Notes: a model not told the origin generated them from the sequence alone. A DNA stretch of 64,000 bases from Allosphingosinicella sp. (GCA_036491055.1 DASXCT010000016.1:982-64981); one strand, 5' to 3'; positions 7,190-63,914 are shown, counted from the first letter of the stretch. Translations and numbers: made by a program.

Positions 7190-8605
7190 TCAGCGTGTCG
7201 TCGTAGCGATCGCCTCGACCAGGCCCGGCACCCAATGGTCGCCGTCGCGCAGCTTGAAGCCGGCGCGATAGCCCCAGGCGCAGCTCTGGATGCCGATCGA
7301 GGCGAAGGCGCTGCTGATCGCGTGATAATAGCGGATGCGCTGCTCCACGGGCACGCGCGGATCGTCCTGCGCGCCATATTCGCCAAGGATGGGGACGCGG
7401 CCGGTGCGTGCCATGTAATCTCGCACGGTTTGAAGGCCCCGGTCGAGCTCGGCCTTGTCGGCCGCCGAGCCGTAGGCGCGGCCGATCGGCGGCGGATGGG
7501 ATCCGGTCCAGGTCGCCCCCTGGTGGGTGAAGGCCATCGGATCGTAATAATGGAAGGTCGGGACGACATAGGGATCGTCGGGCATCGGCAGGGTAGCGAG
7601 GGAGCCGATTCCGCTCCAATTCTCGCCGCCGACCAGCACCGGCCGCGTCCGGTTGGTGGCGCGGATGGCGGCGAGCGCGGGGGTGAAGACGGCCATCAGA
7701 TTGGCGTTGGTGAATTTGTCGTGCGGTTCGTTGTCGAGCTCGAACCAGAGGCTGGCGGGGGCGTGGGCGAAGCTGGACGCGATCTGGCGCCAGAGGCCCG
7801 CGAAGCGCGCCGCATTGGCTTCCGGCGCGGCATCCAGCCCGTCATAATGGTGGATGTTGAGGATGACGTTGAGCCCAGACGCGGTTGCGAGGCCGACGAC
7901 ATGGTGGACGCGGGCGAGGAAGGCGGGGGCGATCGCATAAGGCGCCGTCTCGCCGGCATGGGCGGACCAGCGCACCGGGATCCGCACCGTCCGGAAGCCC
8001 GCCGCGCGGATGATGCGGAAATCGTCGTCGGTTATGCGCGGAGCCCAATCGCCTTCCGTAGGCGCCTCGAGCGCGTCGGAGACGTTGATGCATTTGCCGA
8101 CAGCCAGGGCCGGGCCGATCCGCGCCCGCGCCGCCGGCCCCGGCGTGTAGGCGAAGCCCGGGGCCATCGGCATCGACCAGTCGACCGGGGGAGGCGGCGG
8201 CAGCACGCCGCGAACGAAGCGCATCGGCACCGCGCCCTGGGGCGCGGCAAAGGCGCCGACATAGGCGTGTTGGGCCGGGTCCCACGTTCCGGCATAATGG
8301 GCCTTGGCCTGCGGCACGTCGAAGGCGAGCCGGCCGGCGTCGGCCGTCACGTTGGCGAGCGGAACGCCGATGCCGCCCTGGTCGGGAGAATCGACCGTCC
8401 CGGCAAGGGCACCGCCTTCGCGGCGGAAATGAAGCGCGATGCGCATGCCGCCGGTTGCGATGTCCGGGCCGTCATACCAGTCGCCCTGCGGATCGGGCGC
8501 GGCGGTGGGCGTGTCTTGGGCCGGGGCGGCGGCGGGCGATGCGGCGAGGCCGGCGAGGGTTGCAATCAATCCGAAAGCCACGGCGCCGTTGCGCATTCGC
8601 CTCAT
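7190..8605 (-). CDS. Secreted glycoside hydrolase family 5 with an extra N-terminal domain
   Basis: Signal peptide; GFRTVRIPVRW, FELDNEPH (acid/base), PTFHYYDP, ILGEYGA (nucleophile). Confidence 0.9.
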   Translation of the reverse strand: MRRMRNGAVAFGLIATLAGLAASPAAAPAQDTPTAAPDPQGDWYDGPDIATGGMRIALHFRREGGALAGTVDSPDQGGIGVPLANVTADAGRLAFDVPQAKAHYAGTWDPAQHAYVGAFAAPQGAVPMRFVRGVLPPPPPVDWSMPMAPGFAYTPGPAARARIGPALAVGKCINVSDALEAPTEGDWAPRITDDDFRIIRAAGFRTVRIPVRWSAHAGETAPYAIAPAFLARVHHVVGLATASGLNVILNIHHYDGLDAAPEANAARFAGLWRQIASSFAHAPASLWFELDNEPHDKFTNANLMAVFTPALAAIRATNRTRPVLVGGENWSGIGSLATLPMPDDPYVVPTFHYYDPMAFTHQGATWTGSHPPPIGRAYGSAADKAELDRGLQTVRDYMARTGRVPILGEYGAQDDPRVPVEQRIRYYHAISSAFASIGIQSCAWGYRAGFKLRDGDHWVPGLVEAIATTTR

Positions 8606-8725
8606 CCTCCCTCATCGCCGGCACGCGGCGGTCCTCACACATTCTGTGTTGTCGATATAATACACCGGTGCCGGATCGAATCAATGCGCTGTTCTCGCGC
8701 GCCGCGGACGGTCACTGACACGTTT

Positions 8726-34317: not shown

Positions 34318-35463
34318 CTAGGCCGGCTCGGCGGAGATTCCCGCTTCCGGAACAGGCTCGGCCGGCGTTGGCGCAGGCACATTTTCGATAAAGAGGGCTG
34401 CGAGCGGATCATTGATGTAATAATTGCTTCGGCCCGCCCGGTGCTTGGACAACAGCCCCCCGGCGGTGAGCTGGTCAAGGTAGCGGGCGGCCGTCTGCCG
34501 GCTGATGTCCAGTTCCCGCTGCAGGAATTCGATGCGGGTGTAAGGGAATCGGAAGAGGGTGTTGAGCAGATCCTGGGAATAGATCTTCTTGTGGTTCGTG
34601 CGCAGATTGTTCTTATAGTCCCGCATCAGCTCCTTGATGTCGCCGATGAGGCGCAGCGTGTCGATGGAGGTGCTGGTGACGGCCTGGAGCATGTACAGGA
34701 TCCAGCTCTCCCAGTCTCCGGTCTCCCGCACCGCCTGAAGCAGCCGGTAATATTCGCCCTTGTTCGCGGTGATGTAGCGGCTGAGATAGAGGATCGGAAT
34801 CTCTAGCAGCTTCTCGCGCACGAGATAGAGGACGTTGATGATGCGTCCGATCCGACCGTTGCCGTCGGGGAACGGGTGAATGCTCTCGAACTGGTGGTGA
34901 ATGACGGCCATCTTGACGAGGGGATCGAGGTCGCAAAGCGCATCGTCGTTGATGAACCGCTCCAATTTCCCCATCAGGTCCTGGATCGCGTTGGCGTCCT
35001 GCGGCGGGATATAGACGAGCTTGCCGCTGGCTTCGTTCTTCAAGGCGGTTCCCGGCGTCGCGCGATATCCGCCCGTCGTCCGCTTCAGCACCTGGAACAT
35101 CCGGGTGATGGTGTTGTTGGTGAGCAGTCCCTCCTGAGCGCACAAGGCGTCGTGGCCGACCTGGAGCGCGTCCCGGTAAAGCGCCACTTCCTTGGCGGCC
35201 GGCGAGGCGGGGTTTTCGGGGAACAGGCTGACCTGGAACACCTCATCCTGCGTCGTGACGATATTCTCGATCTCCGAGCTCGCCTTCGCTTCCTGGAGGG
35301 CGAGCGTGTCGATGAGGATGCCTTGGTTGGGGATGCCGCCGGCACGGCCCTTCAACTCGGCGAGGTGACGGTGCGCGCGCGCGGCGGCGCGCAGCACGGA
35401 AGGGTTTTCGAGCGCCGCGTTCGGCGGGAGCTCAGGGATCGTATAAGTCGGCTTGAGAGTCAT
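34318..35463 (-). CDS. Fic family protein with N-terminal Fic_N region and C-terminal HTH
   Basis: EAKASSEIEN inhibitory-type motif; HQFESIHPFPDGNGRIGR; SRQTAARYL. Confidence 0.92.
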   Translation of the reverse strand: MTLKPTYTIPELPPNAALENPSVLRAAARAHRHLAELKGRAGGIPNQGILIDTLALQEAKASSEIENIVTTQDEVFQVSLFPENPASPAAKEVALYRDALQVGHDALCAQEGLLTNNTITRMFQVLKRTTGGYRATPGTALKNEASGKLVYIPPQDANAIQDLMGKLERFINDDALCDLDPLVKMAVIHHQFESIHPFPDGNGRIGRIINVLYLVREKLLEIPILYLSRYITANKGEYYRLLQAVRETGDWESWILYMLQAVTSTSIDTLRLIGDIKELMRDYKNNLRTNHKKIYSQDLLNTLFRFPYTRIEFLQRELDISRQTAARYLDQLTAGGLLSKHRAGRSNYYINDPLAALFIENVPAPTPAEPVPEAGISAEPA

Positions 35464-44992: not shown

Positions 44993-45211
44993 CTAGCGGT
45001 GGCCCCGCCCGAAGCTGGGCTGTGAATGCCTCACGCCGCTAGTGACAACGTCATAGCCGCATGGGTGGCAAACCAGGGTATTGGCCCGTCCCACCGGGAG
45101 GCTTTCATGCTTCATGATCGATTTCTTGCCGTGCTGATAGCAATGGGGACATATCCAATGGGGTGGCTCCGACGGCTCCACGCCTTCCTTCAAACGGTAG
45201 GCGACAGAGCC
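44993..45211 (-). pseudogene. 3' remnant of a zinc-ribbon hypothetical protein
   Basis: GSVAYRLK..EPPHWICPHCY..KKSIM..LVCHPC; recognisable homology stops at about 45212. Confidence 0.5.
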
Positions 45212-45213
45212 TT

Positions 45214-45435
45214 GCCTGGGATGCGCTAAACTCCGATCAGGATGCCGGGTCCATGGCCAGGACGTTCGCCCTGAATTATGAGGGGATGGCCAACAAAACA
45301 GACGATCCAAAGCAGCGGGCAGCGCTCGCGGACGTGCTCAGCACAATTCCCCTCGATCCTACCAAGTCCCCGCGGCGGCCCACTAGCCCGCCACCTGAAA
45401 TCCAGGCCTATCTCCGGCGACGAGCGGGCCGCTAA
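45214..45435 (+). pseudogene. 3' remnant paralogous to the C-terminus of the lysozyme-tipped ejection protein (61410..63578)
   Basis: AWDALNSDQDAGSMARTFALNYEGMANKTDDPKQRAAL vs AWAALHSNQSAGQMAAKVAMDYEGMANKTGDPEKRAAI; 35/58 identical over the last block. Confidence 0.85.
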
Positions 45436-45462
45436 ACCGACAGTCGGAGAGGGCCCAAAGAC

Positions 45463-45774
45463 TCAGTTGCGGTTCTTCCGGCATGGCAGCCAATAGAACA
45501 TCGACCTGGGTGCTTCGAATTCATGCGAGCCCCAGCACCAGCCCATCCGCTCCACGCGTTCGATTAGTCGGTCACGGCGCGCGCAGGTGCGTTTCTTGAC
45601 CGCAATGTCGTAGGTTCCGCTGCAGATCGGGTCCAGGACGGTAATCCGGCGGATGAGGCTTTCAAGCGGCTGCGTGCGCGGCGCTTTGTATTCCGAGATG
45701 CAGCATGCGCTCGCCGACGTCGTGATCAGTGTTGCCGCCAGGAACGCTGCCGCGATCGTTGTCGAAGGGCGCAT
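45463..45774 (-). CDS. Small exported Cys-rich protein, paralog of 63564..63914
   Basis: Signal peptide; ACCISE, TYD.AV.KRTCARRDRL, GWCWGS, YWLPCR shared. Confidence 0.8.
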   Translation of the reverse strand: MRPSTTIAAAFLAATLITTSASACCISEYKAPRTQPLESLIRRITVLDPICSGTYDIAVKKRTCARRDRLIERVERMGWCWGSHEFEAPRSMFYWLPCRKNRN

Positions 45775-47173: not shown

Positions 47174-48370
47174 ATGGCAAACAGCATTCTCACGCCCACC
47201 GCAGTGACCCGCGAGGCGCTGCGCATCCTCCACCAGAAGCTCAATTTCGTGGGCAATATCGTCCGCGAATATGATGACAGCTTCGCCAAGAAGGGCGCCC
47301 GGATCGGCGACACGCTCAAGATCCGGCTGCCCAACCAATATGTCGTGCGCACCGGCGCGGTGCTGGCGACGCAGGATACGAACGAGACCAGCGTGTCGCT
47401 GACCGTCGGCACCCAGAAGGGCGTCGACCTCAACTTCACCTCGGTCGACCTCACCTTGTCGCTGGACGATTTCTCCGACCGCATCCTGCAGCCGGCGATG
47501 ACCGTCCTCGCCGCGAACATCGAGGCCGACGCGCTTTCGATGTACAAGGACGTCGCCAACAGCGTGTGGAACGGCGGATCGGCGGCGACGCTCGCCAAGG
47601 TGCTGCAGGGGCGCAAGCTCCTCCAGGATCATTTGACGCCGCTCAACGAGCGCACGGCCTTGCTCAACACGCAGGACAATGTCGACATCGTCACCGACGT
47701 CAAAGGGCTGTTCAACGCGCAGGACACGATCTCGAAGCAATATAAGGAAGGCTATGTCGGCCGGACCGCGGGCTTCGATTTCGCGGAGAATACGTTGATC
47801 CCGGCCCATGCCCGCGGCGCCGGCAACACCGCCTATACGACCAACACCACCGGCCTTGCGACCGACGGCACCGAATATGCCGCCATCACCGTCGCGACCG
47901 GCACCGGCACGCTGAAGAAGGGCGACGTCATCACCATCGCCGGCATCGACCGCGCGCATCCGGAATCGAAGGCGGACCAGGGCGCTTTGCGCCAGTTCGT
48001 CGTCGCCGCCGATTATGCGGGCGGGGCCGGTTCGGTTTCGATCTCGCCGAGCATCTTCCTCGGCGGGCCGAAGCAGAATTGCGTCGCCGCGACGACCTCG
48101 GCGACGGCGGCGGTGGCAATCGCCGGCACCGCCTCGACCGCGGTCGGCACCTCGCTCATGTTCCAGAAGGAAGCGTTCGCCTTCGCGACCGCCGACCTGG
48201 TCATGCCGCAGGGCGTGGACTTCGCGTCGCGCCAGGTGCTCGACGGGGTGTCGATGCGGATCGTCCGCGCATACGACATCAACAACGACAAGTTCCCGTG
48301 CCGGATCGACGTCCTCTACGGGTACAAGACGCTGCGGGCCTCTCTGGCCTGCCGGCTGCACAACAACTGA
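47174..48370 (+). CDS. Major capsid protein (P22 coat protein gp5 family)
   Basis: MANSILTP, KGARIGDTLKIRLP, FAFATADL, FPCRIDVLYGYKTLR. Confidence 0.93.
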   Translation: MANSILTPTAVTREALRILHQKLNFVGNIVREYDDSFAKKGARIGDTLKIRLPNQYVVRTGAVLATQDTNETSVSLTVGTQKGVDLNFTSVDLTLSLDDFSDRILQPAMTVLAANIEADALSMYKDVANSVWNGGSAATLAKVLQGRKLLQDHLTPLNERTALLNTQDNVDIVTDVKGLFNAQDTISKQYKEGYVGRTAGFDFAENTLIPAHARGAGNTAYTTNTTGLATDGTEYAAITVATGTGTLKKGDVITIAGIDRAHPESKADQGALRQFVVAADYAGGAGSVSISPSIFLGGPKQNCVAATTSATAAVAIAGTASTAVGTSLMFQKEAFAFATADLVMPQGVDFASRQVLDGVSMRIVRAYDINNDKFPCRIDVLYGYKTLRASLACRLHNN

Positions 48371-48432: not shown

Positions 48433-49074
48433 ATGGCGACCCTGACCCAGCTTTATGCCCGCATCATCCTCGACACGAACCGCGACGACCTGAATGCGGG
48501 CGGCGAGCTCGAGCAGGCCAAGATCGATGCGGTGGCCGACGCGATCGAGACCTGGGCCGACGAGCTTTTCTGGTTCAACCGCACCACCGGTGTCGTCACC
48601 ACCGTGCCGAACATCGCCACCGCGGCGATACCGGCGGGGATGCGATCGGCGACGATAATCTCCTACCACGCCGCCGCCCTGCGCAAGGTGCCGGTCGAGA
48701 ATCTGGAGCGAAGCTTCGATCCGGCCAATATCGTCAAGGGCCAGCCGACCGAGTGGGCGGCCTATCTTGACGAGCTTTCCTTCTATCCGACGCCGGACGC
48801 GGCCTATGCGCTCGTCGTCTACGGCACCGCCGATCTTGGCGTTCCCGCGACGTCCAACGCCTGGACCGTCGAGGGCTATCGCCTGATCCTCGCCACCGCC
48901 AAGAAGATCCTGTGCCGCGGCTCGCTGCGCGATCCCGACGGCCTCGCCCTCGCCCGCGACGAGGAGCAGGAGGCGCTCGACAAATTGCGGCGCGAGACCC
49001 GCCGACGCGCCGGCGCGCCGCGGTCGATCGAGCTGCCGGTGAATCCGCCGGCGTTCAACATCGTGACCGGGTGA
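48433..49074 (+). CDS. Head-tail adaptor protein
   Basis: Follows coat gene; GQPTEWA..LSFYPTPDAAY motif. Confidence 0.7.
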   Translation: MATLTQLYARIILDTNRDDLNAGGELEQAKIDAVADAIETWADELFWFNRTTGVVTTVPNIATAAIPAGMRSATIISYHAAALRKVPVENLERSFDPANIVKGQPTEWAAYLDELSFYPTPDAAYALVVYGTADLGVPATSNAWTVEGYRLILATAKKILCRGSLRDPDGLALARDEEQEALDKLRRETRRRAGAPRSIELPVNPPAFNIVTG

Positions 49075-49084
49075 GGCGCGGGCG

Positions 49085-49954
49085 ATGAAGCTGTTTCGCC
49101 CGTCCGAGGGCCCGGTCTGGCTGCCGCGCTTCGGGGATTCGATCCTTTCCGGCTTCAAGTCGGTGATGAGCGCGCCCTTCCGTCCGTGGCGGGCGGCGAC
49201 GGCCGACCTTCCCGCCGCTTCGGATTATGAAGGCGGGATCGTCTGGAATACCGACGATAAGCAGATCGGCTATTCGGACGGCACGGCCTGGCGGGAGCTG
49301 GTGCGGGCGGGGGCGGACACTGCTTACGCCTTGCGGGCGGACAATCTGTCGGACCTGGCCTCTGCTTCGACGGCGCGGACCAATCTCGGCCTCGGTACCG
49401 CCGCGACGCAGAATACAGGCACGTCGGGGGCGACATTGCCCTTGCTCAGCACCGCCAATGCCTGGACGACCGACCAGAATTTCGCCGGCCTGGTCAAGGC
49501 CAATGGCGGCGGGATCGCCTTTCCCGCGACGCAGGTCGCCTCTTCGGATCCGAACACGCTCGACGATTATGAAGAAGGCGTCTGGACGCCGGGCGTGGCG
49601 TTTGGAGGGGTTTCGACTGGAATCACCTATAGCGTTCAAGCCGGCAAATATACGAAGATCGGCAGGCTGGTCTTCATCGATATCAGCGTCATTCTGACCT
49701 CGAAGGGAAGCGCGACTGGATCGGCTCAAATCACGGGCCTTCCTTTCCCGATCGGATCGAGCACGGCGTTCAGCAATATGCCGGCCTATGGCACCAGCCT
49801 CGCCTCCACGGTGACGAATCTGTTCTTTTTCGCCTCTCCCGGAGCCTCCGCTTTGACCGCGCTCAATTTCTCGTCGGGTGCATTGGCCGCGCTGACCGAC
49901 GCCAGCTTTACCAACACCACCGTCGTACGCGTCAACGGCGCCTATTCCGCCTGA
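49085..49954 (+). CDS. Tail fibre-like protein
   Basis: LPAASDYEG..SDGTAW; NLSDLASASTARTNLGL; LDDYEEGVWTP..GKYTKIGRLV..ITGLPF fibre motifs. Confidence 0.75.
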   Translation: MKLFRPSEGPVWLPRFGDSILSGFKSVMSAPFRPWRAATADLPAASDYEGGIVWNTDDKQIGYSDGTAWRELVRAGADTAYALRADNLSDLASASTARTNLGLGTAATQNTGTSGATLPLLSTANAWTTDQNFAGLVKANGGGIAFPATQVASSDPNTLDDYEEGVWTPGVAFGGVSTGITYSVQAGKYTKIGRLVFIDISVILTSKGSATGSAQITGLPFPIGSSTAFSNMPAYGTSLASTVTNLFFFASPGASALTALNFSSGALAALTDASFTNTTVVRVNGAYSA

Positions 49955-49981: not shown

Positions 49982-50347
49982 ATGCAGCGTTACGATCCCA
50001 ATGCCGCCCATGGCGCGGTGTTCAGCCTGTGCCCGGGCACCGAATATGCGACGATCGCGGCCGCGCAGACCGACCAGGTGCTTGCGGGCTCGGAGAGCGG
50101 CGACGGCGTCGGCGCGGTCGGCGACTATCTTTCGCACCTCGTCATCGTGCCGGCGGCCGCGGCGTGCGGCGCGGTTTCGGTCAAGGACGGGAGCAATGCG
50201 ATCACAATCTTCGCCGGCGGCGGCACCGTCGCCTTGCCGACGCTCGCGCCGATCACGATCTTCCTCGGCCTTCGCAGCAAGTCCGGCTCCTGGAAGGTGA
50301 CGACCGGCGCCAGCGTCTCCGTGATCGCCGCCGGGGCGTTCAGCTGA
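49982..50347 (+). CDS. Hypothetical virion protein
   Basis: Co-oriented, beta-rich; TGATG coupling to next gene. Confidence 0.65.
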   Translation: MQRYDPNAAHGAVFSLCPGTEYATIAAAQTDQVLAGSESGDGVGAVGDYLSHLVIVPAAAACGAVSVKDGSNAITIFAGGGTVALPTLAPITIFLGLRSKSGSWKVTTGASVSVIAAGAFS

Positions 50348-51207
50348 TGTACCCCGCCGTCGCCGCCGCGATGAGCGGTGCCCAGGCCCCCGTCATTGCG
50401 GCGGCGGCGGCGAGCGGCTTCACCTTCGCGAACGCCGAGGCGGCGGCGGTCGTGGTCGCGATGACCAGCCCGCCGGACGATGCCCGCAAGCAGCTGATCG
50501 ACGATCTGGTCGGCGCGCTGAAGAACGGCGCGACCAGCGGCTCCGACATCTGGGCGAAGCTCGACTTGCTCTACATCCTCGCCGCCGCCGACCGGCAGGC
50601 CGCCTTGCTGAACTGGAAGGGTGGGGGCTTCGACGGCACGATCGCCGGTACCGGGACCTTCACGTCCGATCGCGGCTGGCAGGGCGACGGATCGACCGGC
50701 TATATCGATACCGGCTTCGACCCGACGATGGCGACGGCGCCGAATTACGCGCTGAACAGCGGGCATCTCGGCTTCTGGTCGCGGACGCCGGATGCGGCGG
50801 CCAGCACGGTGTCGCGGGACATCGGCTCGAACGGCAGCGGCAACGGAGCCGTCGCGCGGGACTCGAACGACAATGCATCCTGCGCGATCAATACGATTAT
50901 CAACCTCCAAAACGGCCCGACCTTCGGTCCGAACAGCGACGGCAGCGGTCATTTTTCCTTCAATCGCTCGGCGAGCGACGCGGAGCAGGTCTACCGGAAC
51001 GGTGTCGACATCGCCACGGTGAACAGGAACAAGGCGTCGCGAATACTTGTCGACGCGAACATCTTCGTCGGTGCGACGGGTAGCCCGCTCGCCCTTTCCT
51101 CGCGCGAGTTCGCAGCCGCGCACATTGGCGCAAGCCTGAATGCCCCGGAAACCGCAGATCTCTCCAATGCGCTCCAGACTTATCTTCACCAGGTAGGGGC
51201 CGCCTGA
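50347..51207 (+). CDS. Putative tail-associated protein, copy 1
   Basis: AMTSPPDDARKQLIDDLVG..IWAKLD N-terminal domain; beta-rich C-terminal domain; part of ORF 50029..51207. Confidence 0.75.
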   Translation: MYPAVAAAMSGAQAPVIAAAAASGFTFANAEAAAVVVAMTSPPDDARKQLIDDLVGALKNGATSGSDIWAKLDLLYILAAADRQAALLNWKGGGFDGTIAGTGTFTSDRGWQGDGSTGYIDTGFDPTMATAPNYALNSGHLGFWSRTPDAAASTVSRDIGSNGSGNGAVARDSNDNASCAINTIINLQNGPTFGPNSDGSGHFSFNRSASDAEQVYRNGVDIATVNRNKASRILVDANIFVGATGSPLALSSREFAAAHIGASLNAPETADLSNALQTYLHQVGAA

Positions 51208-51265
51208 CGTCGACCGCCACTCGACTACCCGGCAAATTCGGGAACCGTTTTCCCGTTGAGCGAGA

Positions 51266-51880
51266 TCAGGTGGTCCCTTTCGTTCCTGCGTTGGTGAGGA
51301 TGGTTTGCGAAATATGGCCGACCGACCATGAAAGCTGGTGATCTACGAAGATTTTGACCCCGGCCGCGCCGAGCTTGCGGAAAAGGTAATAATCCTCGCC
51401 AACGAAGTTCTCGCCATCCTCGCTCGGTTCGTTCAGGAAATAAGGCTTCTCGATTTTGCTGAAAACCGAGGTCTTCATCAGGCATAAGCCGAGTCCCATG
51501 GCGTCGACCTCCGTCAGCGCCCCTTTTTCGGCCAATTCCCTTGTTGTGGCAAACCATAAGCCGGGCCCGAGCGATGCCGTCGGCTGCTCCGGCATAAGCC
51601 GTTTGGCATAGTTCGCCCCCACAACGTCGAGATCGTGAGAGAGGAGCCTGGCAAGCGCGTCCGGTGGGAATGTGTGATCGGCGTCGAGCCACAGAATATA
51701 GTCTGCCCCACCCGTGATCGCCGCCTTGACCAATGACTGCCGAATGCCGGGAAGAGTGGCGGAGCTGCCTGCGATAAGCCCAATCTGCGCCTTGACCGTA
51801 TGCAGAAGAAGCTGACCCAGGCTGACCATGAACGCCAGCTTCGGATCGCCATGGCAGGGGATGCAGACCGCGACTTTCAT
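51266..51880 (-). CDS. GT-A fold (GT2-like) glycosyltransferase, copy 1, antisense to the late operon
   Basis: MKVAVCIPC, YILWLDADH (DxD), VVGANY, GEDYYL, VDHQLS..VGH. Confidence 0.8.
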   Translation of the reverse strand: MKVAVCIPCHGDPKLAFMVSLGQLLLHTVKAQIGLIAGSSATLPGIRQSLVKAAITGGADYILWLDADHTFPPDALARLLSHDLDVVGANYAKRLMPEQPTASLGPGLWFATTRELAEKGALTEVDAMGLGLCLMKTSVFSKIEKPYFLNEPSEDGENFVGEDYYLFRKLGAAGVKIFVDHQLSWSVGHISQTILTNAGTKGTT

Positions 51881-52212
51881 TCGGGCGGCGGCATAGCAGA
51901 AGGCATGGTTTGCCACATCGGATAAAATTGCGGGACTTCATCCTGATTCCCGCTCGCAACCGAAGCGTATCAGCGTCGCCGCCAAGCCATGTCCGCAAGG
52001 CCATCTGGAATGGACTTTTGTTTTACCGTTCTTTTCGGCCTGCTCATTCCACCTGACTGAAAACCACTCTAGCGAACGCCACGCACAATCCGGCAGGACC
52101 GCCGTCATCGTCGCTCCTTGGCGCGAAAGGGAGGAATTGTGATCGACCTCATCGCCTGCCTGCCTCCGCTTGGCTTCGGCTCGGATCGTATCGCTGTCGG
52201 GACTTTCGGCAG

Positions 52213-53028
52213 ATGAACCCTGCCGTCCTCGCCGCTTTGTGCGGCGCCCATGTCTCCGTCATGGCCGCGGCGGCCGAAGGCTTCGTCTTCGCGAACGTCG
52301 AGGCGGCGGTTGTCGTTGCCGCCATGACGAGCCCGCCCGACGATGCCCGCAAGCAGCTGATCGACGATCTCGTCGGATCGCTGAAGAACGGCGTGACCAG
52401 CGGCTCCGACATCTGGGCGAAGCTCGATTTCCTGTGGGTGCTGGCGGCGGCGGACAGCCAGGCTTCACTGATCGACTGGAAGGGAAGCTACGACCTCACC
52501 GCCAATGACGCGCCGACCTTCACCGCAGACCGGGGCTGGAACGGCGACGGGGCTACGGCGGGGATGAACCTGTCGAGCGCGTTCACGCCGTCGACGGCGG
52601 GAGGCCAGTGGGGAACGAACAGCGCGCATATCGGCGCGTTTAATCTTACCGCAGCCAGCTCAAGCGCCATTTCGGCTGGCGCGAGCACTGCCGTCGTTAG
52701 CGGCGGCACCGGTTCACCGGGCGGCTGGATTGGAACCAACTTCTTTGGCGAAACCCCCGCGCCGGCGGGCTCGGCGCCTCACCACATCTGCATCAGCCGA
52801 ACCGGCAACACGACCCAAGTCGCGTACCGAAACGGCGTCGGCGGATCGACGCAAACTTCGTCCGCAAGCGCCGTCGTCACTCCGATCTTCGTGCTTTCCG
52901 ACAGCGCGGGAGGCCCAGCAACAGACGCAAACATCTCTCTCGTTCATGGCGGCGCCGGGCTGAGCGCGGCCGAAGTGCTCGACCTCTACAACGCCGTCGC
53001 GACCTATTTGGCCGGGGTTGGCGCCTGA
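52213..53028 (+). CDS. Putative tail-associated protein, copy 2 (conserved N-terminus, divergent C-terminus)
   Basis: 34/36 identity to copy 1 over AMTSPP...WAKLD; C-terminal halves much less similar. Confidence 0.75.
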   Translation: MNPAVLAALCGAHVSVMAAAAEGFVFANVEAAVVVAAMTSPPDDARKQLIDDLVGSLKNGVTSGSDIWAKLDFLWVLAAADSQASLIDWKGSYDLTANDAPTFTADRGWNGDGATAGMNLSSAFTPSTAGGQWGTNSAHIGAFNLTAASSSAISAGASTAVVSGGTGSPGGWIGTNFFGETPAPAGSAPHHICISRTGNTTQVAYRNGVGGSTQTSSASAVVTPIFVLSDSAGGPATDANISLVHGGAGLSAAEVLDLYNAVATYLAGVGA

Positions 53029-53618
53029 TGCTTCAGCACGGTCTCCGCGATATGCCCGATCTCCCAGGAAACGGCATGATCGACGTAGACCGGTATCTTG
53101 GCGGCAAGTAGATTGCCGAAAAGGAAACTGTCCTCCCCTATCGCAATCTTGCGGTCGCGGTCATAGCCGAAGAGAAACCACGGTTCGGGAAGCCGCTCGA
53201 AAATCGAGGTGTTGGTGAGGCACAGGCCCAGACCCAGAGCGGACACCTGCTCCACGCTTCCGGACCTGACCTTCTCTTCCGTCGTGGCGACAGGCGTTTG
53301 ACCGATATAGGCGGTTGAGGGTTGTCCGGTTTGGCGCCTCACGCAATTGGCGCCGACCACGGGTACGTTGCGGGCGAGAAGTCGGCTCAGCGTGTCCGGT
53401 GGAAAGGTCATGTCCGCGTCGATCCAGAGGATCCAGTCGGCGCCCCATTCCCGGGCCTGGGCGACGAGCACGTTCCTGGCCTGTGGAAGGATCGCGGAGC
53501 TCACGACGAACAGGCGCACGTCGACATTTTCAATTCGATGGTTCGTCAGCCCCACCATGCTCAATAGGAAGCCGAGCTTCGGATCGCCGTGACAGGGTGT
53601 GCAGATCGCGACCTTCAT
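53004..53618 (-). CDS. GT-A fold (GT2-like) glycosyltransferase, copy 2, antisense
   Basis: MKVAICTPCHGDPKL, WILWIDADM (DxD), GEDSFL, VDHAVSWEIGH. Confidence 0.8.
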   Translation of the reverse strand: MKVAICTPCHGDPKLGFLLSMVGLTNHRIENVDVRLFVVSSAILPQARNVLVAQAREWGADWILWIDADMTFPPDTLSRLLARNVPVVGANCVRRQTGQPSTAYIGQTPVATTEEKVRSGSVEQVSALGLGLCLTNTSIFERLPEPWFLFGYDRDRKIAIGEDSFLFGNLLAAKIPVYVDHAVSWEIGHIAETVLKHQAPTPAK

Positions 53619-53677
53619 TTGACGGACCATAACATGCCGATGCTCTTCGCACAGCATCGCAACCACACGGAGGAATC

Positions 53678-55141
53678 GTGGCCGATCTCATCACCTTTCT
53701 TCCACCGCCGGGGCTCAGCTCGGACGACACGACCTTCGAGGATGAGGGGAAGTGGGCGGACGGCTCGAACGTGCGCTTCCGGCAGGGCAAGCCGGAATGC
53801 ATCGGCGGCTGGTCTTTGCTGATCTCCGGCCTCGCCGCGTCGATCACCGACATGCTCGGCTATATTTACGATTCCATCCCGCACGCCGTTTATGCGGGCG
53901 GGTGGAAGCTCTATGTCGCCAACGAGCTCGACACGACGCCGACGGACGTCACCCCGACCGGCCTCACCAGCGACGACACCTCCGCCAATTGGGCGCTCGC
54001 CGCCTTCGGATCGACGCTGCTTGCCTCGCAACGCCTCGGCAAGCTCTACGCCATGCCGGTGCCGGGAACGCCCGCGGCGCCGGTGGCCACCGCGCCGGCG
54101 CAGATCATGTCGATGCTGGTGACGCAGGAACGCCAGGTGCTCGCCTTCGGCTGCAACGAGGAGGTGTCGGGCATCTTCAACCCGGCCTGCATCCGCGGCA
54201 GCGACCTCGAAGACTATACGGTCTGGACGACGCTCCCGACCAACAATTGCTTCGAGCATGTCCTCGACGACGGCGGCATGATCTTCGCCGCGGCTTTGGT
54301 CGGCGCCTATGTCGGGGTGTGGACGACGAGCGGCCTGTGGATGGGCCAGTTCATCGGCGATCCGAGCCAGACCTACCGCTTCGACCGGGTCGATACCGGC
54401 GTCGGCATCGTCGCCACCGGCGCGGTCGCGATCGACAAGGGCATCGCTTACTGGGTCGGCATCGACCTCAATTTCTACCGCTGGGAGCCGGGCGCGGCGC
54501 CCGAGATGCTCGCCTGCCCGATTTCCAAGGATTTCAAGGAGAACGTCGTCTCGGGGGCCTCGATCCGGGTCGAGGTCAATCCCTCGTTCAACGAGATCTG
54601 GATCCTCTATCCCGACAATCGCGACACGCCGGGCGTCAATTGCAGCCGCTACGTCGCTTATTGCGTCGACGAATCGGCGGCGGCCGCGGCGGCGGGCGGC
54701 ATGGCGGTCTGGTATCGGGGCCAGCTCGCGCGGGATTCGATGCTGCCGCCGGGGCCGCTCTCGCAGGTGCTCGGCGCCCAGACCTTGATGGGCGACGTCG
54801 CCGGCAACATCTACACGCACGAAATCCCGACCGTCGCCCCGGATGCCTGGTTCATCCAGTCGGCGGACCAGTATCTCGGCAACAGCCGGACGCGGATGAT
54901 GGTGCGCGGGTTCGTTCCGGATTTCGATTATCAGTCGGGCGACGTCACGCTCACCCTGCTGATGCGCGACCGGCCGCGGTCGACGCCGGTGACCAAGGGC
55001 CCCTACACGATTCCCAACACCGCGGCGAAGCTGGATTTCCGCGCCTCGGGCCAGATCGCCGCGGTCCGGCTCGACGGCACCGCCACCTATATGCGGCTCG
55101 GCAAGCCCCTGTTCGACACGGCTCCGCTCGGCGAGCGGTGA
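53678..55141 (+). CDS. Tail hub/tubular protein (P22 gp10-like)
   Basis: About 490 aa beta-propeller-like; W.DGSNVRF..G..IGGW N-terminus; position in tail module. Confidence 0.7.
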   Translation: MADLITFLPPPGLSSDDTTFEDEGKWADGSNVRFRQGKPECIGGWSLLISGLAASITDMLGYIYDSIPHAVYAGGWKLYVANELDTTPTDVTPTGLTSDDTSANWALAAFGSTLLASQRLGKLYAMPVPGTPAAPVATAPAQIMSMLVTQERQVLAFGCNEEVSGIFNPACIRGSDLEDYTVWTTLPTNNCFEHVLDDGGMIFAAALVGAYVGVWTTSGLWMGQFIGDPSQTYRFDRVDTGVGIVATGAVAIDKGIAYWVGIDLNFYRWEPGAAPEMLACPISKDFKENVVSGASIRVEVNPSFNEIWILYPDNRDTPGVNCSRYVAYCVDESAAAAAAGGMAVWYRGQLARDSMLPPGPLSQVLGAQTLMGDVAGNIYTHEIPTVAPDAWFIQSADQYLGNSRTRMMVRGFVPDFDYQSGDVTLTLLMRDRPRSTPVTKGPYTIPNTAAKLDFRASGQIAAVRLDGTATYMRLGKPLFDTAPLGER

Positions 55142-55666: not shown

Positions 55667-57412
55667 ATGGACCAATGGACCCAGCGTTTCGCCGACATCA
55701 AGGACCAACTCTCCCAGTCCGGCCTCAACGCCGCCCAGCAAGGCCAGGCGCTGAGCGGCTGGGTGGCGGCCAATCCGCGGCCGGCCAATGCGGCGCCGCC
55801 GCCGATGCTTTCGGGCGATGCCCTTGCCGGCGCGCCGGCCGGCCCGATGAGCGCGGCGACCGCTTCCGCACCGCCGCCCTTGTTGCCCCAAATGGCGGCG
55901 AGTCCCGCGGCGAAGCCCGCGCCGGCGCTTGCGCCCAATGTCGCGCCGGTGCCTTTGCCCAGGCCGCCGGCCAACGCGCCGGTTCTGCCGCCGGCCCTTG
56001 CCCCGGCCGCGCCGGGCCTTGGCGCGTCACTGGCCATGCCGCCGCTCGGCGGGCCGAACCTGGCGCGGGCGCCGATCGTCTCGGCCGACGCGCCGATCGC
56101 CGCGTCGCCCTTGCTGTCGCCGACGCCGATCCTGCCGCGGGCACCGCTTATTCCGCAGGTGCCGCCCCCGACCGCGCCGGCCGTGCCGGCGGCGCCTTCC
56201 GTGGCGAACATGCGCGTCGGCGCGCCGGTCCAGGCTTCGTCGCCCGCGCCGGTCGTGCCCGCGCCGAAGCCCGCCGCCATCCCCGCCGCGCCGCTCCCGT
56301 CGCCCGCGCTTATTCGTCCGGCCGCCTCGCCGGCGCCGGCGCCGCTGCCGGTGCAGCCGAGCCCGGCGCCGGCGCCGCCCATGCCCAGGCCAATTTTGTC
56401 GCCGACGCCGGCGCCGCTGCCGGCCCCGCTGCCGGCGGGCGGGCCGAACGCGGCGAACCAGAACGAGAGCTCGAACATCGACGCGCGCGTCAACGCGATC
56501 CTGGCCCGCAACAACGCGCCTTCTCCGCCATCGCCAACGCTCCCTCCGCCTCCGCCGCCGCGGCCGGCCCCGGCGCCCCCGCCGGTCCCGGTCGTGCCGC
56601 CGCTTCCGAAGCCGGTTCCTGCTCCGGTGGCTCCGGTGGCGCCCGCGCCGCCGCCGGCCGCAATGCCCATGCCGCCGGCGCCGCCTCTTGTGGCCCCGCC
56701 GGCTCCGGTCGTCGCGCATCCGGTTCCGGCGCCGCCCGTGCCTGTGCCCGCGCCCGCTCCGGTGCCGAAGCCGGTGCTTCCGCCGGCGCCGCCGCCGATG
56801 CTGCCTTCGGCGCCGATCGTGAGCGTGCCGCCGCCGCCTCTGCCCAGGCCGCCGGTGAGCGCGCCGGTGCTTCCGCCCGCGCCGCCGCCGCCTCCGCCGC
56901 CCCGGCCGGCGCCGATGCCCCCGCCGATGCCGGCCGTGCCGCCACCGCCCGGAACGCCGTCGACGCCGGCGACGATCGCGCCGTTGCCGACCCAGATGCC
57001 GACCGTGTCGACGATGTCGCCGGCGCCCAAGGCTCCCGCCACCGCGAACATCGACACCCATGTCAATGCGCCGACCCAGGTTTCGCTGCCCGTCTATCAG
57101 CCGCCGGCTCTGCCCTCCTTCCTCGACGGCGGGCTGATCCCGAGCTTCACCGGCTACACGCCGGCGCCGTCGATGCCGGGCTATGCGATGCCGCGCACCG
57201 GCCACCCGTTCGCGCCGACGCCCGCCGCCCAGAATGCGCCGCTGCTGCCGGGCTTCAACAACCCGTTCGTCGGGGCGGCCGGGGGCGGCGGCGGGATCGC
57301 TTATGGGGTTGGGGGCGCGATCGCCGGCACCGGCTACGATCCGAGCGATCCGACGGGGCTGGGGGCGCTTTACGGCCAGCTGCTGGTGCCGAAGATCACG
57401 CCGCAGGTTTAG
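55667..57412 (+). CDS. Extremely Pro/Ala-rich protein in the ejection-protein position
   Basis: ATG directly after the upstream TAG; CCG-dominated Pro codons; non-repetitive N- and C-terminal caps. Confidence 0.65.
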   Translation: MDQWTQRFADIKDQLSQSGLNAAQQGQALSGWVAANPRPANAAPPPMLSGDALAGAPAGPMSAATASAPPPLLPQMAASPAAKPAPALAPNVAPVPLPRPPANAPVLPPALAPAAPGLGASLAMPPLGGPNLARAPIVSADAPIAASPLLSPTPILPRAPLIPQVPPPTAPAVPAAPSVANMRVGAPVQASSPAPVVPAPKPAAIPAAPLPSPALIRPAASPAPAPLPVQPSPAPAPPMPRPILSPTPAPLPAPLPAGGPNAANQNESSNIDARVNAILARNNAPSPPSPTLPPPPPPRPAPAPPPVPVVPPLPKPVPAPVAPVAPAPPPAAMPMPPAPPLVAPPAPVVAHPVPAPPVPVPAPAPVPKPVLPPAPPPMLPSAPIVSVPPPPLPRPPVSAPVLPPAPPPPPPPRPAPMPPPMPAVPPPPGTPSTPATIAPLPTQMPTVSTMSPAPKAPATANIDTHVNAPTQVSLPVYQPPALPSFLDGGLIPSFTGYTPAPSMPGYAMPRTGHPFAPTPAAQNAPLLPGFNNPFVGAAGGGGGIAYGVGGAIAGTGYDPSDPTGLGALYGQLLVPKITPQV

Positions 57413-61409: not shown

Positions 61410-63578
61410 ATGGCCTATCAGGACGGCGATTCCAGGACCTATGGCGGCGTCACCTATCTGCGCCAGGACGGCCTCTGGTATCCGCAGCCCGATCCCGTGC
61501 TCGCGGCCGCCCAAGGCGGCGATGGCGGCGCGCCCGGCGATGGCAGCCAGGGCAACGCGCCCGATGCGTCGGCGCAGGCCGATCCCGACCAGCTCACCGG
61601 TCAGATCGCCCAGGTCAAGGACCAGTTCGTCAACGCGACCGATCCCGGCCAGAAGGTCAACGCGCTGTGGCAACTCGGCTCACTGATCATGGCGGCGAGC
61701 CAGCAGCCGCAGCAGGGCGGGGGAAGCGACGGCAGCGGCGGTTCAACCGGCAATCCGCCACAGCCGGCCGCGCTTTTCCAGCCGGGGCAGAACCAGCAGA
61801 ATCCGCCGCCCTTCATTGCCGGGCTGTCCGGCGCGCCCGACGACCCGGCCGGCGCGCTCCAGCAGCTCGGCGCGCCGCAGGGATCGGATGACGGCGGCAA
61901 CGGCACTGCGCAGCCGCCGCTGCCCCCGCCGCTCCTCGGCCAAGGTTCCGACAATGACGGCAACGACGGATCGGGCATTCCCCTCCTACCGTCCGATCAG
62001 CAGGGTCCGCCGCCGTTCATAGCGGGGCTTCCGGGCGCGCCCGGCGATGTGGCCAGCGCCCTGCAGCAGCTCACCACCCAGCAGGGCGCGACGGCTCCGG
62101 GTCTCGGCGGCGGCAACGGTCCGCAGCCACCCGCCTCCTTGTTCGCTGCCGGCGGGCCAGGCGGCACGAGCGGCGGAGCGCAGTCCGGCGGTCTGTTCGG
62201 CGCGCCAAGCCAGTCCGCCGGGCCGCCGCTGCCGCCGGACCAGCAGAACCCGCCGCCCTTCGTCGCGGGACTTCCCGGCGCACCCGGCGACGTAGCCAGC
62301 ATCCTCCAGCAGCTCGGTACGCCGCAAGGGGCAGGGGCTTCCGGCGACGGGCCGGACGCGCCGCAGCCGCCGGGCTCGTTGCCCGTCACCAATGCACCCG
62401 GCACCGGGAGCGACGATCAGCAGCAGCCCGGCGGCTTGCTTGGCATGCCGGGCCAGCCCGTCGTACCGCAGGCGCCCGCGCCGGGAGGGCCGGGCCCCCA
62501 GGGAAGGCCGCCTTTCATCCTGGCCTCCGCGCAGCAGCCCTTCCAGCCGAATGGCTTGCCGCCCGGTGGCGCTTTTCCAGGGCAGGGTGCCCGCGGTTCC
62601 CAACCCCCTTTTGGCGGCGCACCTGCCGGATTCCGTCTGGCTTCGCTGGATTCGCCGTCGGACGGACAGGCGGTCCTGCGGACCTACGGCTCTCCATTGG
62701 ATCCGGTTCTTGGGCCGCCGGCCAGCATCGCCCGCGCGCCGATCAAGGGTGCGCCGGCAGCAACTGCGACGCGGCAACCGACAGCCGCGCCAGGAGCGGC
62801 CACCCCCCAGCCGGCACAGGACCCGTTGCATGCCGAGTATAATTTTCAAGCCAACACCAACCTGGCGGTGGGGAGCAGTAAACTCACTCCAGATCAGAAA
62901 GCCGACCGCATCTATCAGATTGCGAAGCAACGCGGCCGCCCACTCGATCCGCACATGCGGCCGTGGCTCAAGGGCCACGCAAACGCGCCGATGATCGGGA
63001 ACATGCACATCGGGGAAGTCATCTCGCTCGCCCAGCGGGGCACCAGATTACGCAACCGGCTGATGCAGTTCGGATTCACTCCCGCCGCCGCGGCAGCGAT
63101 GGCGGCCAACGCGATGGTGGAAAGCTATGGCTATTATCGGTCTCCACAGCTGAGTGGCGGACCCGGCTATGGCCTCTGGCAATGGTCGCCTTATCGGCGG
63201 GGCTTATACGAAACGCTGAAGAAAAAGCAGAACAAAACGCTAAAGCAAAATCAGGACGTAAGCTTCTCAGCTGCTAATGAGGATGACCAGATCCGGTTCA
63301 TGATCTGGGAAATGCAGAATCAGCACCCCTACCATGATGCGTGGGCGGCGCTGCACTCCAATCAGAGTGCGGGGCAGATGGCGGCCAAGGTCGCAATGGA
63401 TTACGAAGGAATGGCGAACAAGACGGGAGATCCCGAAAAACGGGCCGCAATCGCGGATCTGCTGAGCAGCATTCCCGTCGATCCTCGGATGAATCTGGCC
63501 GCGCCGTCGAGTCCGCCACCGGAGGTCGACGCCTTTCTGCGGCGCAAGGCTGCCAGTGCGCGGTCAGTCGGGCGCTGA
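61410..63578 (+). CDS. Ejection protein with low-complexity N-terminus and C-terminal phage-tail-lysozyme-like domain
   Basis: FGFTPAAAAAMAANAMVES..GPGYGLWQW..RR..DQIRFMIWEM..DYEG matches the Phage_lysozyme2 pattern; three PPPF.AGL.GAP.D.A..LQQL repeats. Confidence 0.8.
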   Translation: MAYQDGDSRTYGGVTYLRQDGLWYPQPDPVLAAAQGGDGGAPGDGSQGNAPDASAQADPDQLTGQIAQVKDQFVNATDPGQKVNALWQLGSLIMAASQQPQQGGGSDGSGGSTGNPPQPAALFQPGQNQQNPPPFIAGLSGAPDDPAGALQQLGAPQGSDDGGNGTAQPPLPPPLLGQGSDNDGNDGSGIPLLPSDQQGPPPFIAGLPGAPGDVASALQQLTTQQGATAPGLGGGNGPQPPASLFAAGGPGGTSGGAQSGGLFGAPSQSAGPPLPPDQQNPPPFVAGLPGAPGDVASILQQLGTPQGAGASGDGPDAPQPPGSLPVTNAPGTGSDDQQQPGGLLGMPGQPVVPQAPAPGGPGPQGRPPFILASAQQPFQPNGLPPGGAFPGQGARGSQPPFGGAPAGFRLASLDSPSDGQAVLRTYGSPLDPVLGPPASIARAPIKGAPAATATRQPTAAPGAATPQPAQDPLHAEYNFQANTNLAVGSSKLTPDQKADRIYQIAKQRGRPLDPHMRPWLKGHANAPMIGNMHIGEVISLAQRGTRLRNRLMQFGFTPAAAAAMAANAMVESYGYYRSPQLSGGPGYGLWQWSPYRRGLYETLKKKQNKTLKQNQDVSFSAANEDDQIRFMIWEMQNQHPYHDAWAALHSNQSAGQMAAKVAMDYEGMANKTGDPEKRAAIADLLSSIPVDPRMNLAAPSSPPPEVDAFLRRKAASARSVGR

Positions 63579-63914
63579 ATACCATGCCCAATTGTGGTTC
63601 CTCCGGCACGGAAGCCAATAGAGTTCGAGCTCCAGTGCGCGGTCGTCACGCGAGCCCCAGCACCAGCCTAATCGGTGCGCCTCGTGCAGCAGGCGATCTC
63701 GGCGTGCGCAGGTGCGTTTGATGACAGCCTCGTCGTAGGTTGAACCACATTGCAGGGCTGCGACTGCAACCCGATGGATGATGACATGCGCCCGCCCGGA
63801 GCGTGGCGCTCCAGTTTCCGAAATGCAGCACGCCGCCGCCGGCGCGGCAAGCAAAGTTGTGGCTGCGAGGAACAGGAAAAACCGCGTCGCCCTTTGTGAC
63901 AATGCAATCCTCAT
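63564..63914 (-). CDS. Small exported Cys-rich protein convergent on the lysozyme gene; candidate inhibitor/immunity protein
   Basis: Signal peptide, six Cys, paralog of 45463..45774; 15-bp 3' overlap with the lysozyme gene. Confidence 0.78.
   Translation of the reverse strand: MRIALSQRATRFFLFLAATTLLAAPAAACCISETGAPRSGRAHVIIHRVAVAALQCGSTYDEAVIKRTCARRDRLLHEAHRLGWCWGSRDDRALELELYWLPCRRNHNWAWYSAPD

Follow-up and report, generated by a model that had tools for sequence, protein, structure and literature searches.

Tandem units of a predicted lectin-fold protein and a predicted glycosyltransferase in the late operon of an alphaproteobacterial prophage

The stretch of DNA analysed here, referred to as the window, comprises 64,000 nucleotides from Allosphingosinicella sp. 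(GCA_036491055.1, DASXCT010000016.1:982-64981) and derives from a soil metagenome. It contains an integrated temperate prophage of podovirus type, with P22-type coat and portal proteins and an SU10-type adaptor, in the chromosome of an alphaproteobacterium that is probably a sphingomonad. Within its late (virion) operon, a hypervariable accessory region holds a unit of two genes: a plus-strand gene for a fibre-type protein, which we call A, and a convergent minus-strand gene for a predicted glycosyltransferase, GT. The unit is present twice in direct tandem (Table 1). This arrangement had been proposed from the DNA alone (the original prediction), and all its elements were recovered where that reading had placed them, far beyond chance.

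A1 and A2 align from end to end with 43% identity (E 7e-54), and GT1 and GT2 are 47% identical (E 7e-63). The A proteins share the near-identical N-terminal block that the original prediction had singled out (MTSPPDDARKQLIDDLVG.LKNG.TSGSDIWAKLD, with 33-34 of 36 residues matching), and the resemblance extends as claimed to the DNA, where 222 nt can be aligned and exact runs of 32 and 33 nt are common to both repeats (at 50476/52339 and 50532/52395). Synonymous divergence (dS) between A1 and A2 is 0.47 over the first 93 codons and saturated past them (~1.8-2.0, near saturation, for the C-terminal halves of A), which matches the proposed divergence of these halves. The GTs share the start MKVA.C.PCHGDPKL and a DxD motif (LD-A-D), yet are clearly diverged, and their GC content at third codon positions (GC3; 0.71 and 0.74) lies below the 0.78-0.90 of neighbouring genes, in keeping with the AT-richness noted before. 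Copy 1 is translationally coupled to the operon, the ATG of A1 overlapping the TGA of p121 (TGATG).

Table 1. Coordinates of the tandem units and of the virion genes around them, counted from the first letter of the window.
Feature	Coordinates	Strand	Evidence or remark
Coat protein	47174-48370	+	P22_CoatProtein, E 3e-35
SU10-type adaptor	48439-49074	+	
p289, tail-fibre-like protein upstream of the cassette	49085-49954	+	PHROG tail-fibre families; PDB sequence match 'short tail fiber gp92' of 9zd7, E 1e-10
p121, small conserved virion-module protein, 121 aa	49982-50347	+	Last ~23 nt within the duplicated unit
A1, predicted lectin-fold (ConA/LamG-like) accessory fibre/receptor-binding-type protein, 286 aa	50347-51207	+	AlphaFold2 (AF2), Foldseek
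Conserved N-terminal block, repeat copy 1	50400-50621	.	82% identical to 52263-52484
GT1, predicted minimal soluble GT-A glycosyltransferase, convergent with A1	51266-51880	-	Alternative GTG start at 51916
Duplication joint: strong Shine-Dalgarno (SD) sequence AAAGGGAGG and 25-codon open reading frame (ORF; 52139-52216)	52126-52216	+	p487 5' end fused to p121 3' end
A2, A1 paralogue with a different hypervariable C-terminal half, 271 aa	52213-53028	+	
Conserved N-terminal block, repeat copy 2	52263-52484	.	DNA repeat comparison
GT2, second predicted GT-A glycosyltransferase	53004-53618	-	3' end overlaps A2 3' end by 25 nt; alternative GTG start at 53666
p487, hub- or nozzle-type virion protein, 487 aa	53678-55141	+	phrog_3287 'virion structural protein', E 1e-43; PDB chain, 6 copies in 9nwi, E 3e-13

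The origin of the repeat can be read from the 332-bp gap between GT1 and A2. Copy 2 had been described as lacking a clear ribosome-binding site (RBS). This was wrong: the gap carries a strong RBS (AAAGGGAGGAATTGTG) in front of the 25-codon ORF, which is ATGA-coupled to A2, and judged by its sequence the A2 leader is thus coupled and strongly initiated. The RBS and the first 16 codons of the ORF correspond by homology to the beginning of p487 (52130-52185 versus 53669-53724). In its last ~8 codons (52190-52212), the match between A2 and A1 runs on upstream into the final part of p121 (50324-50346). A fusion of the p487 start to the p121 end is the joint expected of unequal crossover and thus argues for a tandem duplication of the A-GT segment. 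A crossover of this kind would have doubled the segment while fusing p487, cut at codon ~16, to the final ~8 codons of p121, and the joint would have been retained as the 25-codon ORF with its strong p487 RBS, stop/start-coupled to A2. The p121-derived part of the joint is the weak spot of this explanation, as its ~23 nt are not significant alone (score 28 against a shuffle maximum of 32); it counts because it is continuous with the significant A1/A2 alignment.

The same joint is found in the closest relative of the prophage, L004, which lies in an Allosphingosinicella metagenome-assembled genome and has a 97% identical coat protein (dS 0.16). Behind its inverted GT, L004 carries the same SD sequence and hub-gene remnant. 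What follows the remnant (L004 9598-10205) is a 161-aa protein in which no family was detected, with no GT; only its first ~11 residues match the A N-terminus, and it probably represents an A 5' end that was kept after the body of the gene was replaced. Since the joint is common to both phages, the duplication predates their split, and since the second unit of L004 differs, this unit has been replaced in at least one of the two. A separate feature of the gap is a 38-nt stretch (52037-52074) with a word depth of 55-400 in soil run X1, compared with ~25 for the prophage, at which several long contigs end. It has no other copy in the window, the loci or genome_contigs; it may be a regulatory motif or a dispersed short repeat.

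A metagenome assembler might produce such a tandem by concatenating two one-cassette strain variants. The DNA is indeed of metagenomic source, and in the main run (71% of which was read as Logan contigs) the contigs break exactly at the 32-33-nt exact repeats, in both copies. Against an artefact, the path from GT1 through the gap to A2 holds the unique fusion joint, which is possible only in a tandem, and a 200-nt contig of another run spans 52121-52320. Short contigs of three other soil runs independently span the A1/GT1, GT1/gap and gap/A2 junctions, 97% of sampled words of the whole region are present in run X1, and L004, an independent assembly, has the same joint. Because the junctions recur in three other runs and the joint in L004, we regard an artefact as highly improbable.

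Comparison with L004 also reveals what happened to the units after duplication. In the backbone genes, dS between the window and L004 is 0.16-0.30. The first ~150 codons of A1 and of the L004 A gene are 84-92% identical in DNA (dS 0.40); beyond them identity collapses to ~45% (dS ~2), which bears out the proposal that the conserved N-terminal block serves as a recombination substrate. GT2 and the L004 GT are 65-67% identical (dS 0.93), with a dN/dS of ~0.27 that points to purifying selection on GT, and the dS of GT1 against GT2 or against the L004 GT is ~1.9 or not computable (saturated). The dS pattern thus delimits a variable island, consisting of the A C-terminal half and GT, between conserved flanks. 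Relationships within the island are discordant: the A protein of L004 is nearer to A1, and its GT is nearer to GT2 than to GT1 (47%). The nearest relative of GT1 is a metagenomic protein with 59% identity that adjoins another GT on the same strand, and GT1 and GT2 are not mutual closest relatives. We propose that, after the duplication, homologous recombination in the conserved flanks exchanged the variable segment (the C-terminal half of A together with GT), which would make the two copies old alleles and not recent duplicates. As a history read from these comparisons, the recombining cassette, with duplication by unequal crossover, the A2 leader and later allele replacement, appears well supported. 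We found no inverted repeats flanking the GTs or the A C-termini, and domain searches of the module proteins showed no recombinase in the virion module; an invertible fibre segment of the Mu G or P1 C type was rejected for want of flanking inverted repeats and of an invertase in the module.

The predicted structure of A is that of a lectin. The AF2 model of A1 (predicted local distance difference test score, pLDDT, 79; predicted template modelling score, pTM, 0.83) consists of a disordered, Ala-rich N-terminus (residues 1-22), two helices (30-60), a jelly roll and a C-terminal helix, with a pLDDT of only 52-64 for residues 150-200. The jelly roll has two sheets and a predicted concanavalin A (ConA)-like/LamG fold. 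In the PDB, Foldseek matches it to AbnA domain 4, the lectin-like subdomains of BoNT Hc and trans-sialidase lectin domains (E 5e-7 to 1e-5); in BFVD, the ConA-like/LamG matches are C-terminal domains of far longer phage proteins (TMq 0.7-0.78). Model, fold searches and alignments together agree with the view of A as a lectin-type protein with a conserved N-terminal and a hypervariable C-terminal part. Ser, Thr, Gly and Asn abound in the variable part, for which the confidence of the model is low. The same domain caps larger proteins, such as collagen-repeat or Ig-like proteins and the 775-aa phiM12 gp398/phiN3 protein with its SGNH/GDSL esterase domain, and one database homologue of A is fused to DUF2793. 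A itself has no Pfam or NCBIfam match (including the Laminin_G_3 type) and no PDB sequence match. We infer that A is a free-standing form of a distal fibre-type domain that probably binds glycans, and that A1 and A2 serve as alternatives to each other, both being accessory fibre or receptor-binding proteins with glycans as ligands.

GT1 and GT2 are, according to their models, minimal soluble GT-A glycosyltransferases with a DxD motif. GT consists of a single domain of 204 aa (AF2 pLDDT 95, pTM 0.92), and all of the top 50 Foldseek matches are GT-A enzymes. The best of them is A197 of the archaeal virus STIV (PDB 2c0n; E 1.6e-10, TM 0.65-0.69), which is also the only PDB sequence match (E 0.025); the next structural neighbours are the protein O-glycosyltransferases COLGALT1, LH3 and ppGalNAcT, and mimivirus R699. 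Both GTs have D66-x-D68, E162, D163, D180 and H189, residues that do not vary among 23 homologues. Pfam Glycos_transf_2 scores 20-21 bits against GT1 and GT2 (cut-off 23.3), and Anp1 scores 32.4 bits against GT2 and 22.5 bits against GT1 (cut-off 28.8), with both matches spanning the DxD region only; in PHROG the family is phrog_1574, 'unknown function'. No transmembrane segment was detected in the GTs (KD19 maximum 1.27), and no GtrA/GtrB/GtrC-type Pfam domain in the GTs or their neighbours. Without a membrane domain, and with genes inside the virion operon, the GTs fall outside the Gtr-type, membrane-bound class of serotype-conversion enzymes. The GT sequence was not found in public RNA runs, Rfam has no match in 51100-53800, and RNA folding at the two convergent A/GT junctions is not above that of shuffles (z -1.7 to +0.3). 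Homologues with ~40% identity also occur on the chromosomes of Allosphingosinicella and Sphingomonas (Sphingomonadales; L013-L025 and L046, ~8001-8700), next to hisS-prfA-prmC, and form a clade nested among the phage GTs.

To place the GTs in context, we surveyed their homologues. GT-anchored searches yielded 50 genome loci, and at least 575 IMG/VR viral contigs contain a homologue. The 137 GT genes examined include 96 that run co-directionally with the genes on either side and seven that form inverted islands. The dominant order (~75 loci) is scaffold, SU10 coat, p100, GT, SU10 adaptor and GP4 fibre-I protein; in an annotated example, a complete temperate genome with an integrase, start and stop codons overlap on both sides of GT. 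As these loci had been found through GT, we repeated the survey anchored on coat proteins as a control for ascertainment. GT lies between coat and hub at 11 of 49 P22-coat-anchored loci (nine co-directional, two inverted) and between p100 and adaptor at 24 of 73 SU10-coat-anchored loci, always co-directional. GT is hence an accessory gene with fixed slots, and the notion of a core gene, which the GT-found loci had conveyed, was rejected after this marker-anchored sampling. The slot directly 5' of the hub gene contains a single GT in L026, L174, L178 and L197; that of L026, an element of Sphingomonas parva 17J27-24, is co-directional. Inverted GTs adjoining the hub gene recur in L197 and L129.

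Several loci carry more than one GT. In L129 (6992-11120), the hub gene is flanked by three copies, two of them co-directional and one inverted; three tandem copies lie beside a serine recombinase in L032 (6424-8630), and two or three paralogous GTs are present on phage or prophage contigs in L014 (7116-9755) and L011 (8001-10176). In L120 (5974-6672) and ~17 similar SU10-coat loci, a GT11-type (fucosyltransferase-like) gene is located two genes upstream of GT, which suggests that multi-step glycan synthesis is encoded in the head module.

A is rarer than GT, being present at two of the 49 P22-coat-anchored loci. Among ~30 distinct A-anchored loci, five distinct elements have a GT within 7 kb, and in three of these no other gene separates the two, namely in the window, L004 and L005-7. 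The last has an unrelated phage backbone and the order p121-p121-A-GT on one strand. A and GT occupy separate slots in L071 and L076.

On this basis, the explanation that accounts best for the locus combines duplicated, recombining cassettes and lectin-type A proteins with GTs that glycosylate a phage-made protein; we hold this whole to be somewhat short of an even bet. With regard to the acceptor, we tentatively favour transfer of sugar onto a phage-made or virion protein over conversion of the host surface. The placement of the family at large, co-directional and tightly packed among late genes, implies co-expression of GT with virion proteins, and this placement, the predicted soluble minimal GT-A fold and the structural neighbours would all suit a virion-protein acceptor. 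GT sets, made up of two or three paralogues or of GT plus a GT11-type enzyme, resemble glycan-building sets. In the window, the GTs lie in the virion module on the opposite strand, and this inverted orientation would uncouple them from late read-through. Several points weigh against a phage-made acceptor. Its choice relies on fold and gene context, and among minimal GT-A enzymes fold similarity predicts the acceptor poorly. That A is part of the virion is itself suggested by gene position and homologues. The GTs are accessory in their phage families, and the chromosomal homologues among housekeeping genes of Sphingomonadales make a role in cell-envelope glycans plausible. Finally, the GTs of the window and L004, antisense to the late operon, low in GC3 and accompanied by other antisense accessory genes (SoFic, Fic, p103), have the classical look of lysogenic conversion. 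GTs of this kind, driven by promoters of their own in the lysogen, would add sugars to an envelope glycan precursor (glycosphingolipid, exopolysaccharide or capsule) at the cytoplasmic face and so alter a surface bound by phages, with superinfection exclusion as a consequence; among sphingolipid glycosyltransferases, Sgt1, Sgt2 and Cer-GlcAT have been named (PMC13318209). Late transcription would oppose the GTs and the lysogenic state would favour them, and the inverted, hub-adjacent GTs of L197 and L129 fit such a role. The soluble prophage GT-A enzyme TarP of S. aureus, which alters a surface polymer, provides a precedent. However, the packed, often start/stop-overlapping arrangement around the 96 co-directional GT genes, including that of the temperate genome, leaves no room for lysogen-specific expression; the GTs have neither a transmembrane segment nor a GtrA/GtrB/GtrC-type partner; and a consensus scan found no sigma-70-like promoter upstream of either GT, a scan that is weak for alphaproteobacteria. 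The enzymes Sgt1, Sgt2 and Cer-GlcAT are presumably of a type other than GT1 and GT2. We therefore regard conversion as a rather unlikely role. DNA glycosylation is considered unlikely too, given the position of the GTs in virion modules and the lack of any listed base-hypermodification gene in the one complete genome whose annotation was read.

How the two GTs relate to each other and to the A proteins can be judged from the same loci. GT1 and GT2 might cooperate on a shared glycan, to which each contributes a single sugar; that they alternate with the A genes would then simply reflect the duplication and an accessory slot in front of the hub gene that both kinds of gene use. The GT sets without A in L011, L014, L032, L129, L173 and L120, the lone GTs in the slot 5' of the hub and the finding that GT1 and GT2 are not mutual closest relatives are all compatible with this. 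The joint, however, shows that the second GT arrived together with A as one unit, and L004 manages with a single GT; joint action is accordingly unlikely. The original prediction had instead matched each GT to its neighbouring A, either masking the glycan that A binds or glycosylating A itself, with the A C-terminus and GT forming one co-evolving cassette. The deeply diverged segment is exactly the A C-terminal half plus GT, A is directly followed by GT in the window (twice), L004 and L005-7, and the composition of the variable part of A would fit either a binding surface or a target of O-glycosylation. The pairing did not hold up in the survey: ~25 of the ~30 distinct A loci have no GT within 7 kb, nearly all of ~135 GT-bearing loci lack A, and a GT accompanies A in ~17% of cases, not above the base rate of 22-33% in the marker-anchored samples. 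Other phages carry two or three GT paralogues without any A, and L071 and L076 keep the two genes apart. In L004, the sole close comparison, an A1-like A accompanies a GT2-like GT, and the second unit, behind the same joint, is a non-A protein with no GT. Matched pairs are thus improbable, and any assignment of a GT to an A would not be fixed; a looser functional link between them is possible because the order p121-A-GT recurs in the unrelated backbone of L005-7. Improbable as well is a 'bind and rewrite' unit, in which A would bind a host glycan, maybe a glycosphingolipid headgroup, and the antisense GT would modify the same glycan in the lysogen. Our tentative preference stays with GTs that act on a phage-made protein.

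Around the tandem units, the window is organized as follows. Its first 31 kb (1-31 kb) contain ordinary bacterial genes, including those for a TonB-dependent receptor, GH3 and GH5 enzymes and an LD-carboxypeptidase. From ~32 kb onwards come a phage replication initiator, the antisense SoFic gene, terminase and the P22-type portal, followed by the virion operon, which ends with the gene of a lysozyme-bearing protein. The SoFic-type gene (34318-35463, minus strand, early region) encodes a single-gene defence protein with Fic_N, Fic and SoFic-like_C domains (PADLOC E 2.9e-116), and L004 has an antisense Fic gene in the portal-scaffold interval. PADLOC has no match for GT, A, p121 or p103 and so gives no support for a known defence system in them; nor does NCBIfam match GT, A, p121, p289, p487 or the chromosomal GT homologues.

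The small antisense gene p103 (phrog_25984) is present twice in the window (45211-45774 and 63400-63875). Upstream of each copy, the plus strand encodes all or part of the last ~70 residues of p722, the lysozyme-bearing protein. The pair also occurs in L174 and L186 and resembles a duplicated end-of-operon segment set between portal and scaffold. After p123 in the virion operon, a 581-aa protein of extreme Pro/Ala content (55667-57412, plus strand; local GC 80%) is encoded, which is kept in L004 and L011 and whose low complexity draws many unrelated metagenome contigs. The p121 protein is 94% identical in L004. It precedes A in the window, L004, L071 and L076 and is doubled in L005-7, and none of its 64 homologue clusters has a name. 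A fixed partnership of p121 with A or GT was ruled out by four more p121 loci that have neither, and kinship with the GP4 fibre protein Gp80 or with p100 by profile-profile probabilities below 1%.

Neither A, which has no Pfam family, nor the GT family has a described function, and GT is widespread: in two large groups of podovirus-type phages, roughly a quarter to a third of the members carry it in fixed accessory slots. If the GTs glycosylate virions, particle glycosylation would reach beyond mycobacteriophages to phages of Gram-negative soil and water bacteria, with consequences for adsorption, stability and immune recognition. If host glycans are their targets instead, they would represent a new, membrane-independent type of conversion enzyme, and should 'bind and rewrite' units exist after all, the prophage would combine two adsorption specificities with two matching superinfection immunities, a phage-driven conversion of bacterial glycosphingolipids that would be without precedent. 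Whatever the function, the fusion joint offers a clean, datable case of a specificity cassette that appears to have been duplicated and then diversified by recombination in a late operon.

The closest structural counterpart of the GTs, STIV A197, is likewise a virus-encoded single-domain GT-A protein of ~200 aa with a DxD motif, reported as essential to STIV, whose coat protein it may glycosylate (PMC10551542). It differs in belonging to an archaeal virus with an unrelated genome context, its identity to GT is 17%, and its acceptor is putative as well. Among bacteriophages, the virions of mycobacteriophages are reportedly glycosylated by phage-encoded glycosyltransferases (PMC11256854, PMC12801897). 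Like GT, these are accessory, soluble enzymes present in some group members only, sometimes in sets, and the proposed acceptor is a virion protein; they come from siphoviruses and myoviruses of actinobacteria, whereas the GTs studied here belong to podovirus-type prophages of Gram-negative bacteria, lie in the head-tail module (inverted in the window) and are known from their genes alone. Prophages also carry accessory glycosyltransferases that modify the host surface and can change phage receptors, such as the Gtr clusters of P22- and Sf-type phages and S. aureus TarP. The antisense, moron-like placement of the GTs in the window fits this type. Unlike the Gtr clusters, the window GTs have no GtrA, GtrB or GtrC and no membrane domain, do not lie by int/att, and belong to a family whose members are mostly co-directional in late operons.

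For A, the ConA-like/LamG distal domains of Sinorhizobium phage phiM12 gp398, phiN3 'YapH', Rhizobium phage proteins and cyanophage LamG proteins have the fold in common, and the rhizobiophage ConA-like proteins belong to the same subfamily (29% identity, TMq 0.76). A differs in that it stands alone, with ~280 aa and a lineage-specific Ala-rich N-terminus. The unit as a whole is reminiscent of fibre specificity cassettes, namely T4 gp37-gp38, lambda stf-tfa and the S-U segments of Mu and P1, in which a variable fibre C-terminus is combined with a downstream accessory gene. The likeness lies in the conserved N-terminal anchor, which can act as a recombination handle, in the hypervariable distal domain that is swapped together with the next gene, and in the tandem alternative copies. 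In the prophage described here, however, the next gene encodes a predicted glycosyltransferase on the opposite strand in place of a fibre chaperone, and neither an invertase nor flanking inverted repeats accompany the cassette.

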